Positions 1 through 4,223 are shown, numbered from the stretch's first letter. The stretch: DNA of 32,000 nucleotides from Candidatus Harpocratesius repetitus (GCA_021498095.1 JAIZWK010000001.1:2070001-2102000), one strand, 5' to 3'. The notes: a model not told the origin generated them from the letters alone. Program-made: numbers and translations.

Positions 1-1
1 T

Positions 2-1084
2 GAATTCTCCATAAAATCAAGTGCTGTTAGGGAAGAATATCGTTTAGCTAAAAAATTTGAAAGAAAAATAATCCCCATCATTTTAAATGAAGATTTAAAT
101 GCTGAAAACATCAATTCTACGAATAATGAAGAATATTCTAAAATAATAAAAGAGCATTTTCCAGATATTTACAAAAATCAATATATTGAGAAATATCGAA
201 CTGGATACGATTTAATCGAATTTCAATCAAGCTTGTTGGCAATGGTTGAGAAGCTAACTGGTGTGCAAATTCAAGAAAGTGTTGGTTTAGTTCCTATCTA
301 TAATATTCAAAAAACAATAATTGGTTTCACCACACGACCCTTTTTACATTTCATTCCCCAAGCTTATCACAAGACTATTATCGCTATCCTCGTTGCTCCT
401 GTTATGCAAGATAAAGGAATTATAGATCCCACGAAACGAAAAATCATCGTTCAAGTAAAACCAAAAAAAAGGAAGAGAAGATCTGGGAGTTTAGCATTTT
501 TTGGAGGGCATAACGAAATAAATGAGTCTTATACTGATACCGCCATACGGGAATTGAGTGAAGAAATTAATATTCCTGAAGAAGAAATTACCAAACAGCC
601 TCTCATTAGAATTGGTAGAGAAGGTGAATTCTCATGGACAGCAGAAGATAAAGAATTTTCACGGTATAACTATGAATTCAGCACATTATATGTATACCAT
701 CTTGCAAATCGTCCGTATTTCTTTCAAGAAACGATAGGACCTAAGATTTTACCCGTTTTTACAATTCAAATAACCTTAGATGAATTATTCAATATCTATA
801 ATAATTCAACAACAATTGGTTCATTTATAAAAGACAATTCAATCGAAATTCCTGAAAACATACAAAAAAACATGGGAGATTTCACGGATCCATTACGATT
901 TAGTGATGATATTGTTCGTTTATTTGGATATCCTGAAAATATCACACAAAAAAATGGACAAAGCTTTAGTGAAGATCTACAAAAGAGAAGAGAAAAATAT
1001 GAAAAGAGATGGAAAGCTGCAATCTTTGATGCAATTCAAAATCCCCACCATCTGTCAAACCCAGACTGTAAATTAATTTTATAA
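2..1084 (+). CDS. TIR-domain + Nudix (IDI-like) hydrolase fusion protein, 5'-truncated by the window edge
   Basis: The frame of ORF 233..1084 is open back to base 2. It reads EFSIKSSAVREEYRLAKKFERKIIPIIL, matching the TIR_2 pattern S-x-x-V-x-x-E-x-x-x-A...K-I-I-P-I-I-L. Downstream is a Nudix box GGHNEINESYTDTAIRELSEE (G-x5-E-x7-REUxEE, from 503) with IDI-like flanking motifs (IIGFTTRPFLH, YHKTIIAIL, IIVQVK, EFSTLYVY). Confidence 0.75.
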   Translation, partial: EFSIKSSAVREEYRLAKKFERKIIPIILNEDLNAENINSTNNEEYSKIIKEHFPDIYKNQYIEKYRTGYDLIEFQSSLLAMVEKLTGVQIQESVGLVPIYNIQKTIIGFTTRPFLHFIPQAYHKTIIAILVAPVMQDKGIIDPTKRKIIVQVKPKKRKRRSGSLAFFGGHNEINESYTDTAIRELSEEINIPEEEITKQPLIRIGREGEFSWTAEDKEFSRYNYEFSTLYVYHLANRPYFFQETIGPKILPVFTIQITLDELFNIYNNSTTIGSFIKDNSIEIPENIQKNMGDFTDPLRFSDDIVRLFGYPENITQKNGQSFSEDLQKRREKYEKRWKAAIFDAIQNPHHLSNPDCKLIL

Positions 1085-1183
1085 TTCTTCGTTTTTTTCT
1101 TCAATTCAGGCAAAAAACTATAATTATAAAAAGATTAATGGAAATTTTTTACTAGCAAAATACGTTGAAGGTAGGTATTTCTT

Positions 1184-3202
1184 ATGACTGAATTAAAGAA
1201 AAGAAGAAATTTAAATCGAAAAAGAGCAAAAAAAAATGTCCCACTCGCCCAATTTTTTCAAGAAATACTTCAAACTAGTAACTCTATGGAAGTAATAGTA
1301 TATGAAGGACTTGTAGGCATTAAAGTCAATTCTCCAGAAGAGGCTATGAAATGTTTTGAAAATGATCTTAATCTCCTTTACAATGGTTATTTACATTATT
1401 TTGAGGAGGAATTGAAATTCATCGAAGATTCCATATATGAATATGATTTCGGCAGTAAAGAATATAAAAAGTATAAAAGAAAGATTAGAAAATTAGTAAA
1501 GGACTATCGCAAACAGCAAGAAGTCTGGTTAAAAAATAAAGAATGGAAAAGTAAATTTGAAGAAATTTTAAGAAAAATTTGGGCGAATATTTTAAAACCA
1601 GAAAACTACCAAGGAATTCAAGGCTATGTACTTCAGTATAGTGGAAATGTTAGTGTTAGTAATGATTCCGATTATCTTTATTCATCTGAAGATTTATTAC
1701 TGTTAAAAGACAGTGCTCCAGATGGTATTACTGGTATTGCATTATCCAATGAACTCTCAAGTTTATTACATAATCTCGATATATTCATAAATGAAATACA
1801 AGAAATCTTATCTAGAATGTTAAATTGTGATGATGAAACAAAATGGATGAGATTGTTAACAAGAATTTATACTTCAGAAGATTTTCCTGTTGGAGAAACT
1901 CATTTTTATGCAATTCAAAGTATGGTTAGGAATTTTGGAATAGATGGATGGGAAATTGCCATGCGAAGAAGAGCAAAAATAAAAAAAAATAACTGGTTAG
2001 AAGAAGATTATGATTACTATATTTTTCCGCAAGAACTCAAATTATTGATAAAAATCAGCAATAAAATCGGTCATTATATTAATATACATGAACAAAATTT
2101 TTATCCTTCTTATAGAAGTGGAAAGGTCCGTTCCGCCGAAAGAAAAATAGAAGATAAATGTTTTGCAATTATTAGATCGGTTACTGATTTTGATGATTTA
2201 GAATTTGAAGATTTTATTGATATAGAATATAAAGATTTTGACTACTATTGGGAAGATGACGATTTTATGCATATCAGATCTTTAGGATTAAGAGGGTTAT
2301 CCTTAAGCAAAATTCCAGAGGAAATTTTTAATTTTAAGTTTTTAAATTATTTAGATCTTTCTCAAAATTCGATTGAATATATACCTGAAGCAATCTTGAA
2401 TTTAAAATTTTTAAAAAAACTGAATTTGATCGAAAACCCTTTAAAATTAAAATATCAAAAAATATTCGAGAAAAATCCATTATTAACTTGTGAATATATT
2501 AAGAGTTATCTTCAAAATGAAAAATTGACACTGGATGATATTAAAAGCAGAATTACACAGAACCAGGCTTTAGATTTTTCAAAACATATCCCGAAAGTAA
2601 TCCTTAATAATAAAGAACAAATCATAAAATTTTGTCAAAAGCACCATTCAAGTACAGCAAAATTCCTTCAGAATTACTTGAAAATGGATTTTATTCAAGA
2701 AGAAGCAATCCATCTAAATGAAGCTAAATGGATTAGACAGCTTTTTACTGAGATTTCTACTGAAATTCCACTTTATCATGATATCGCATATAATTTCGAT
2801 GAAGAATTTGAATATCAAATTGATAAAGGTATTATTTTAAGAGAATACAGAGTATCCAGAATTTTCTTAAATGGTCTCCAACTAGAAGAAATTCCCAAAG
2901 CGATTTTTCACTTCAAAAAGTTGATAGAATTGCAACTAAAGAATAATAATTTATCAGATTTACCTTTTGAAATGGATAAATTGAAAAAATTAGAATATAT
3001 TTCTTTATCAGGTAATAACTTTTCTGAAATTCCGGTTGTTCTTGGTGGTTTTGAAAAGTTAAAGGAAAAATGTTATGAAGAATTAAAAGAGTATTGTGGA
3101 TTTGAAGAAGTAACTGGCGAAACTATCAAAAATCATATAAAAACTCGATATCATACAGAGAAATTGAATTTTCAAGGAAATCCACCATCTAACAAACCCT
3201 GA
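1184..3202 (+). CDS. Leucine-rich repeat protein with two separate LRR blocks and an uncharacterised N-terminal region
   Basis: LxxLxLxxNxLxxIP repeats: LSKIPEEIFNFKFLNYLDLSQNSIEYIPEAILNLKFLKKLNLIENPL and LEEIPKAIFHFKKLIELQLKNNNLSDLPFEMDKLKKLEYISLSGNNFSEIP. SD-like GAAGGTAGGT lies upstream. Confidence 0.85.
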   Translation: MTELKKRRNLNRKRAKKNVPLAQFFQEILQTSNSMEVIVYEGLVGIKVNSPEEAMKCFENDLNLLYNGYLHYFEEELKFIEDSIYEYDFGSKEYKKYKRKIRKLVKDYRKQQEVWLKNKEWKSKFEEILRKIWANILKPENYQGIQGYVLQYSGNVSVSNDSDYLYSSEDLLLLKDSAPDGITGIALSNELSSLLHNLDIFINEIQEILSRMLNCDDETKWMRLLTRIYTSEDFPVGETHFYAIQSMVRNFGIDGWEIAMRRRAKIKKNNWLEEDYDYYIFPQELKLLIKISNKIGHYINIHEQNFYPSYRSGKVRSAERKIEDKCFAIIRSVTDFDDLEFEDFIDIEYKDFDYYWEDDDFMHIRSLGLRGLSLSKIPEEIFNFKFLNYLDLSQNSIEYIPEAILNLKFLKKLNLIENPLKLKYQKIFEKNPLLTCEYIKSYLQNEKLTLDDIKSRITQNQALDFSKHIPKVILNNKEQIIKFCQKHHSSTAKFLQNYLKMDFIQEEAIHLNEAKWIRQLFTEISTEIPLYHDIAYNFDEEFEYQIDKGIILREYRVSRIFLNGLQLEEIPKAIFHFKKLIELQLKNNNLSDLPFEMDKLKKLEYISLSGNNFSEIPVVLGGFEKLKEKCYEELKEYCGFEEVTGETIKNHIKTRYHTEKLNFQGNPPSNKP

Positions 3203-3217
3203 TTGTAAATTGATTTT

Positions 3218-4223
3218 TTAATTCTTTGCATGTTCCTTCAATTCAGGTAAAAAGTGATATGCTAAGATAAAACTTCCTACTGCCATGATGATAGAGATAT
3301 ATAATGCAATATGCCAATTCCAATCAAAAATAATAAATTTCAGAATTATCGAGAAAAATACGGTAAAGATTGCAGGAACAGAGCCTAAAATGCCCCAAAT
3401 ATAATCAATTTCATTATTATTAAAGGATGAATAAATATAATCCATACTGAAAGGTTTAACAAAATCCCGCGCCATTAAAATTATTACCGAAATAAGCATC
3501 CAAATATAAAGCTGACCAGCAGCTAAAATCATACTTAAAGGAATCACATCAAAAATCAAATCAAAGAGAAAAATTTGTTTTTTTTTTAGGTTTTTTTGTT
3601 AAGACCGCCATTAAAATGCTCAATCCTCCAACTAAAAGATGTCCAAAACCGTAAGATTCAAAAATATCTGAAATTGGAAAGCCTTGTATGAAAAAAATAG
3701 ATGGTAAAAATGAAAAAGTGGCAGAAATCCAAGATGTCATTATTGCAATGATTAATTGAAAAATCAAAACTTTTTTGTTAACTAGTGATTTAAATGAAGA
3801 AATTGGTTGATTTTCGATTGTTTGAGTTATATTTGAAGAGGTTTTGTTTGTTTCCATTTTTTGGTTAACGATCCTGTTGCGATTCCTAAATATAGGAATA
3901 AATCACGAATAGAGAACACTTTACCTCTTTCATTTTTTGCTCACAAGCGCGTAGATAGCTAATGAAAAAGTAGTGACTCGTAAATTACCAAATTTGCTAC
4001 TTAACTTAAAAATTGGTAATATAATAATGCAAATTTGAGTGATCACTTTATATGCCGTTATTGCAACAGGTTTTTGTTGAAGATTGAAGAATAATTCGGA
4101 ACCTAAATCAATGATCTCAAAGAAACTCCAGAAAAAGAAGAATAACAAATAGATTAACATAAAATCTAGTCGAAATATATTATAAATTGAGTTATGTTTC
4201 TTTTTTGAATTAAATCCGATCAT
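3218..4223 (-). pseudogene. Decayed MFS transporter, covering track ORFs 3930..4223, 3561..3857 and 3218..3559
   Basis: Removing one base from the T10 run (3578-3587) fuses the two distal ORFs into a 6-TM MFS C-terminal half (...AVLTKKPKKKQIFLFDLIFDVIP...). Removing one base from the T6 run (3933-3938) gives YALVSKNERGKVFSIRDLFLYLGIATGSL, an MFS TM4-5 loop/TM5 pattern. LSSKFGNLRV resembles MFS motif A. TM3-4 and TM6 appear to be deleted. Confidence 0.65.

Follow-up and report, generated by a model that had tools for sequence, protein, structure and literature searches.

A TIR–Nudix fusion protein in a Promethearchaeota genome and its possible role in the consumption of NAD+

The window analyzed here is a stretch of 32,000 nucleotides (G000:C1:2070001-2102000) from the single-contig, 4.36 Mb genome of Candidatus Harpocratesius repetitus, which has a GC content of 31%. 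Positions are counted from the first letter of the window, and negative positions lie upstream of it. At its beginning, the window contains the last 360 codons and the stop codon of a gene on the plus strand (1..1084) that encodes a TIR domain followed by a Nudix domain. Downstream of this gene are, in order, a gene for an LRR protein of 672 aa, three short ORFs, a carbonic anhydrase gene, and BioY. Upstream of the window is a divergently oriented gene for an AAA_14/DUF4143 ATPase. The region farther upstream encodes an RHH antitoxin-like protein paired with a 171-aa protein that belongs to no known family, as well as an SBF transporter, an ArsR regulator, and a DDE transposase. In the following paragraphs, we describe the TIR–Nudix gene and its two domains, the distribution of the family and the surroundings of the gene, and then consider what the protein may do.

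Frame 2 is open from base 2 of the window through the stop codon TAA at 1082-1084. In the whole genome, the frame runs 250 nt further in the 5' direction, without any stop, and reaches an ATG at G000:C1:2069750. The complete gene (G000:C1:2069750-2071084; window -250 to 1084) consists of 444 codons, which encode 444 aa (P0001). A second ATG located eight codons on gives a 436-aa product, which is identical to entry P0002 of the public protein collection, for which both Pfam domains have already been precomputed. A preliminary description of the window, made from its sequence, reported that the frame is open to base 2 and adds SSAVREEYRLAKKFERKIIPIIL as a TIR_2-type alphaC/betaD segment. This segment is indeed residues 90-112, with a helix at 91-102 and a strand at 106-111 in the AF2 model, and retrieval of the upstream contig, which the same description had recommended in order to obtain the full N-terminus, yielded one uninterrupted 444-codon gene. 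On the other hand, its statement that the TIR part is "hidden upstream of the called ORF" reflects an artifact of the window edge; the public collection calls the whole gene, and the TTG-233 ORF is only a mechanical ORF within the window.

Given 444 open codons in DNA of 31% GC and two family matches over the curated cut-offs, the frame is judged to be far beyond chance. The possibility of two separate genes or of a pseudogene was also considered and ruled out: there is no stop and no frameshift, and the orthologues are colinear. The GC content of the gene equals the genome median, so that its composition gives no hint of a recent transfer. No paralogue of the gene was found in its own genome. 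No RNA data set is listed as containing the stretch, and just one DNA run, probably that of the source sample, contains it. The genome contains two further TIR_2 matches, at G000:C1:77785-78144 (minus strand) and 2523546-2523734 (plus strand); one lies in an open frame of 1074 aa and the other in a frame of 75 aa that may be a fragment.

The TIR domain was identified by a Pfam match to TIR_2 (PF13676) over residues 26-116 (E 7.6e-16; 59.1 bits against a curated cut-off of 28). Its N-terminal part (residues 24-84) is encoded upstream of the window, and it is this part that supplies the betaA/alphaA motifs LFISYSHQD, IRFWYD, and PG..W. The C-terminal part (2..265, plus strand; residues 85-172), as delimited by Pfam, the AF2 model, and Foldseek, contains the end of betaC, alphaC, betaD, the alphaD region, betaE, and alphaE. 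The putative catalytic glutamate, located by alignment, is Glu96, whose codon is at 35..37 on the plus strand. In a HMMER alignment, E96 falls on E77 of SPARTA TIR-APAZ, which is the catalytic residue of that protein. E96 is invariant in an alignment of four sequences (A1), and reading the sequences of P0010 and of five wider TIR–Nudix relatives by eye showed the same residue there. The glutamate at 35-37 had been described as intact and putatively catalytic, and its alignment to E77 of TIR-APAZ and its conservation in every relative examined agree with that description.

Among solved structures, the closest TIR domain by sequence is that of SPARTA TIR-APAZ (E 5e-4). When the full-length model was compared with known structures using Foldseek, the best matches were the TIR domains of SPARTA, RPP1, RPS4, and SARM1; the rmsd to the SPARTA TIR was 4.4 over 164 columns, and the TM-score by target for the RPS4 TIR was 0.58, in a region where the model itself has a pLDDT of only 57-88. 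The confidence of the full-length AF2 model is only moderate (pLDDT 68, pTM 0.50), and therefore we draw nothing from it about the relative placement of the TIR and Nudix domains. From these sequence and fold similarities, the TIR domain is a probable NAD-cleaving domain. As regards the observations that, according to the preliminary description, would speak against a TIR domain, the betaA/alphaA motifs are present, the model matches the flavodoxin-like TIR fold, and the upstream part belongs to the same gene.

The Nudix domain starts about six residues past the TIR domain and occupies residues 178-342 (281..775, plus strand), as determined from the domain model, Foldseek, and the profile. The Pfam match to NUDIX (PF00293) covers residues 230-295 (E 4e-6; 27.3 bits against a curated cut-off of 21.1), so that the HMM searches and the structure prediction named in the preliminary description gave matches over both Pfam cut-offs and a model that matches TIR folds. 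The Nudix box, GHNEINESYTDTAIRELSEEINI, is located at residues 253-275 (506..574, plus strand) and fits the pattern Gx5Ex7REUxEExGU with one exception, namely an Asn in place of the penultimate Gly. The statement that a complete Nudix box is joined to the TIR domain on one polypeptide thus holds, with this single Gly-to-Asn change. In an alignment of 16 Nudix sequences (A4), E259, R267, E268, E271, E272, H200, H207, H254, N307, and E309 are invariant. In addition, His200 (347-349) and His207 (368-370), which span 347..370 on the plus strand, correspond together with His254 (509-511) to the metal-site residues His25, His32, and His69 of Escherichia coli IDI in an hhalign comparison.

Modelled alone with the 16-sequence alignment, the Nudix domain reaches a pLDDT of 89 and a pTM of 0.89. 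The top Foldseek matches of this model, in the PDB and among the Swiss-Prot models, are E. coli YfcD (2fkb), human and bacterial IDI-1, 3dup, and DR0079, and the family profile, when compared with the PDB, finds YfcD at E 1.2e-12. The possibility of a type-1 IDI isomerase was ruled out: although the three His residues are kept, the catalytic Cys67 of E. coli Idi (CGH motif) is replaced by Gly252, which stands opposite it in the hhalign alignment. Since IDI Cys67 is Gly here and the REUxEE box, which IDI lacks, is intact, the Nudix domain is, by its motifs, of the hydrolase type and not an isomerase. The earlier label "IDI-like" is therefore apt for the fold, which resembles YfcD and IDI-1, and for the three retained IDI histidines, but not for the activity, because the catalytic Cys is missing.

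Neither Foldseek nor the comparison of the profile with the PDB revealed any specific kinship of the Nudix domain to ADP-ribose pyrophosphatases, NudC, or RppH, and ADPRases rank far below YfcD and IDI in both. ADPRases are marked by a conserved Pro about 15-16 residues past the Nudix box. This ADPRase-type Pro at +15-16 is absent, the only Pro residues past the box being P276 (+1) and P284 (+9). A strongly basic loop, KPKKRKRRSGS, precedes the box, and a phosphate-rich substrate is plausible for the domain.

The remainder of the protein (776..1081, plus strand; residues 343-444) is a mostly helical C-terminal extension with a conserved FSDDIxR motif. The long form of this extension is specific to a close subfamily, which forms a well-supported clade (100/99). 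The mean pairwise identity is 51% in the Nudix domain, 42% in the TIR core, 31% in the tail, and 26% in the TIR C-terminal region and linker (residues 117-177); conservation is highest in the Nudix domain, as one would expect if it is a working enzyme. No infection-sensing domain was identifiable in the 444-aa protein.

To describe the distribution of the family, several collections were searched. When 5.8 billion proteins were searched by a word index, no more than three additional full-length relatives, with 39-44% identity, were obtained, and an exhaustive profile search with the Nudix half against 1.8 billion representative proteins found one more close relative, P0010. In total, the representative proteins contain about five close and about six wider TIR–Nudix clusters. 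In the wider clade, the same type of Nudix domain lies behind a TIR_2 domain in P0014, P0016, P0017, P0019/P0078, and P0020; counted as protein clusters, the fusions of this Nudix clade to TIR_2 number at least 10. All the named members come from MAGs of Promethearchaeota and are annotated just as "TIR domain-containing protein". Among 185,579 prokaryotes, with one genome per GTDB species, close relatives occur in only two further genomes, both from Promethearchaeota. The survey of Asgard genomes for TIR–Nudix fusions that had been suggested earlier gave a full-length match in two of the 301 genomes of the phylum, namely the genome of the window and one genome of the same genus; another same-genus genome, which is 92% complete, gave no full-length match. 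A search of other Asgard genomes for split pairs of TIR and Nudix genes yielded none among the moderate profile matches. These proved to be a Nudix gene of the YfcD-like kind and a true IDI located next to genes of the mevalonate pathway, and neither had a TIR gene in its vicinity. The family is very rare, patchy, accessory, and so far Asgard-only.

This distribution bears on one alternative, a two-step decapping of NAD-capped RNA. According to one report, NAD-RNA is deNAMed by TIR proteins from bacteria and by one from an archaeon, after which NudC or DXO yields p-RNA, and its authors propose a two-step pathway (PMC10937652). A protein in which both activities are fused would fit this proposal exactly: the TIR domain would carry out the deNAMing and the Nudix domain would then cut the ADPR-type cap to leave 5'-monophosphate RNA, in RNA turnover or against viral transcripts. 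However, the Nudix domain is of neither the NudC nor the RppH type, the protein has no RNA-binding domain, and the very rare and patchy occurrence just described argues against a general role in RNA metabolism. We consider this alternative to be quite improbable.

The profile search also retrieved the Nudix domain in other settings. In other clusters it stands alone, and in P0012 and P0021 it precedes a match to Nuc_deoxyrib_tr, which is over the Pfam cut-off in P0021 and below it in P0012. These two metagenomic proteins (876 and 1031 aa, respectively) consist of an N-terminal domain of this Nudix clade, the Nuc_deoxyrib_tr-matching domain, and then about 600 residues of no known family.

Such changes of partner raise the possibility that the Nudix domain, with the C-terminal tail, acts mainly as a ligand-binding switch for a TIR NADase effector. 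The switch would bind a nucleotide alarm molecule and perhaps hydrolyze it slowly as a timer, in a manner comparable to TIR-SAVED and TIR-STING. The same Nudix clade occurs with differing partners, either TIR or the Nuc_deoxyrib_tr-matching domain (a match that passes the cut-off only in P0021), and in the more distant P0022 it precedes hydrophobic, membrane-like segments; a variety of partners is what one typically sees when sensor domains are combined with interchangeable effectors. Nudix-fold sensors of ADPR, such as NrtR, are known (PMC9503650), and as the family has no conserved partner gene, sensing must be built into the protein. On the other side, the catalytic Nudix residues are all invariant in the 16 sequences, whereas Nudix domains that serve only as sensors usually lose them, no ligand-making enzyme is linked to the family, and the assignment of P0022 is weak (E 1.8e-8, on a long branch). 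Taken together, a role mainly as a switch is unlikely, and an active hydrolase is the reading that we retain below.

The surroundings of the gene were compared at six places, and no conserved neighbor was found across them. Immediately behind the same-genus orthologue is an MFS gene in convergent orientation, and the genes that surround three other relatives are unrelated. In view of this lack of a conserved neighbor, the protein probably works alone.

On the upstream side, the ATPase gene (L001 1-1137, minus strand; window -1500 to -364) matches PDC-S01, a candidate system of PADLOC, at E 5e-109. With a GC content at the 2nd percentile of the genome, the gene looks foreign. Together with the RHH antitoxin-like gene and the DDE transposase, this PDC-S01-matching ATPase lends the surroundings a conflict flavor, although a weak one: PDC-S01 is only a candidate system and no neighbor is conserved, so that the neighborhood evidence for defense is weak. 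The divergent intergenic region of 112 bp between the ATPase gene and the TIR–Nudix gene is mostly filled by a 23-bp tandem repeat with 3.3 copies of the consensus AAAAGTTTTCATTATCAATGAAC (L001 1150-1226; window -350 to -274). No other array of this repeat was found in the genome, and it may be a binding array for a regulator.

On the downstream side, the gene for the LRR protein (1184..3202, plus strand) has Pfam matches to LRR_14/LRR_8; the N-terminal half of its 672-aa product belongs to no known family and had no usable match in a protein-atlas search. The gene is bracketed by a direct repeat of 72 nt, which lies in a 101-column alignment with 84% identity. Copy 1 (1045..1116, plus strand) covers the last 13 codons of the TIR–Nudix gene and 32 nt downstream, and copy 2 (3182..3253, plus strand) is entered by the LRR frame in another frame, which stops there. 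The GC content of the LRR gene is lower. Since the two genes have the same orientation, with 100 nt between them, one might suppose that they form a module in which the TIR–Nudix protein is the effector and the LRR protein is its pathogen sensor; LRR sensors with TIR domains are a pattern of plant and animal immunity, and two TIR-LRR genes lie behind the gene of the relative P0017. However, at the other four places examined (the same-genus orthologue and the three other relatives), no LRR gene adjoins the TIR–Nudix gene; at the fifth, the P0017 contig L027, the TIR-LRR genes are unrelated and their products resemble the LRR protein of the window only in the repeats. Because of this absence, the bracketing by a repeat of the TIR–Nudix 3' end, and the lower GC, the LRR gene is probably a later insertion and not a conserved partner. 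The arrangement resembles the insertion of a cassette at the 3' end of the TIR–Nudix gene, and the two-gene module is very improbable indeed.

Beyond the LRR gene, at 3218-4223 on the minus strand, are the three consecutive short ORFs of 113, 98, and 97 aa, which are split by a frame change and stops. Weak matches to MFS_1 were obtained for the first two and no Pfam match for the third, and the three ORFs probably represent the remains of a transporter gene. A tblastn comparison of these fragments with the MFS gene that follows the same-genus orthologue gave no significant match; only gene order and the weak Pfam matches connect them.

The contig of P0017 (L027 1-11279) carries seven genes in a row, namely TIR–Nudix, two TIR-LRR genes, a gene for a 576-aa protein, an 80-aa ORF, SIR2_2, and TPR. 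The 576-aa protein has a C-terminal NUDIX domain. This row looks like an NAD-centered immune island, and it gives the wider family an NAD-centered conflict context.

For the function of the protein, the reading that we put forward, with a probability of about 0.5, is that it is a one-chain, two-enzyme Asgard protein that would act in conflicts with viruses or other mobile elements and would consume NAD+ in two steps. Activation would probably occur through self-association of the TIR domain, as in other TIR NADases. The TIR domain would remove nicotinamide from NAD+ to give ADP-ribose or a cyclic or transferred variant of it, and the adjoining Nudix domain would cleave the pyrophosphate of this product into an AMP-type piece and a phosphoribose-type piece. 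The most likely effect of the two steps would be a destruction of NAD+ that could not be reversed from ADP-ribose; less likely, a nucleotide signal would be shaped or ended. The phage pathway NARP1 uses ADP-ribose to rebuild NAD+, and molecules of the ADPR type are cleaved by the Nudix enzyme NudC (10.1101/2024.02.11.579819); by our own reasoning, cleavage of ADP-ribose would deny viruses the substrate of this pathway. In favor of the two-step reading are the union of two catalytic-type domains in one chain, the conservation of both active sites, the rare and accessory distribution of the family, and the lack of a conserved partner gene. Against it, the nearest Nudix relatives, YfcD, IDI-1, and DR0079, are not ADP-ribose pyrophosphatases, and the ADPRase-type Pro is missing; the median GC content of the gene, the lack of an identifiable infection-sensing domain, and the weakness of the neighborhood evidence also count against it.

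The idea of the preliminary description that the TIR domain could serve as a writer, and the Nudix domain as an eraser or processor, of an ADPR-type signal is also plausible. However, the family is not accompanied by any conserved reader or effector gene. This speaks against a role of a diffusible signal and favors a self-contained NAD+-destroying enzyme over a signal generator. A special case would be a one-chain maker of a new nucleotide messenger, in which the TIR domain makes an ADPR-type adduct and the Nudix domain trims it to a phosphoribosyl-nucleotide that is read by an unlinked Asgard receptor. The pRib-AMP/ADP of plants is thought to arise by similar trimming, and the messenger, if real, would represent a prokaryotic forerunner of the eukaryotic TIR/Nudix signaling axis; we nevertheless regard it as a long shot, and the two-step consumption of NAD+ is the reading carried forward.

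NAD+-cleaving TIR enzymes are an immune tool common to bacteria and plants as well as animals. Plants hold them in check with Nudix hydrolases, and the ADP-ribose left over from TIR activity is used by viruses to rebuild NAD+. Against this background, a TIR–Nudix protein could show what the cleavage of a TIR product is for, whether irreversible depletion of NAD+, tailoring of a signal, or switching off of a signal. It would also give the first substrate lead for the uncharacterized YfcD-like branch of Nudix proteins. A literature search for TIR–Nudix fusions found no paper describing one, and two surveys of Asgard defense do not mention such a protein; this is in line with the earlier remark that the architecture is not known to have been characterized in archaea. 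What is particular to this gene may be the YfcD/IDI-like type of its Nudix domain and its restriction to Asgard archaea.

Several known systems share one or the other half of the protein. The TIR half is most like SPARTA TIR-APAZ: both have a TIR_2-type domain with an aligned Glu (E96/E77), and neither has a Trp four residues before this Glu. The TIR–Nudix protein, however, has no APAZ; a Nudix domain is fused instead, and there is no Argonaute nearby. As regards Thoeris, the match to ThsB_TIR is marginal (22.4 bits against 21.2), and no ThsA-type effector (SIR2/SLOG, Macro, or TM) is found among the neighbors. In contrast to ThsB and the TIR-SAVED effectors, the TIR–Nudix gene has no ThsA, SLOG, or SAVED partner.

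The Nudix half has its best fold matches in YfcD (2fkb), DR0079, and IDI-1, with which it shares an N-terminal hairpin that carries a conserved His before the first core strand. It differs from these proteins in the helical tail of about 100 aa and in the fusion to a TIR domain. The family profile also recovers true IDI and YfcD-like genes in other Asgard genomes.

With respect to the order of the reactions, the in vitro system of TIR deNAMing followed by NudC or DXO (PMC10937652) has the same sequence of a TIR step and then a Nudix step, but it is composed of separate enzymes, and the Nudix domain described here is not NudC-like. In plants, a TIR enzyme and the Nudix hydrolase NUDT7 likewise act on the same nucleotide pool, and NUDT7 suppresses TIR-triggered cell death (10.1101/2021.11.09.467869). 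Nudix effectors of pathogens also restrain plant TIR signaling. The plant proteins are separate and act in trans, and NUDT7 does not belong to the YfcD/IDI-like branch, whereas here both domains are placed on one chain. By analogy, this TIR–NUDT7 pairing is the nearest functional parallel to the archaeal protein.
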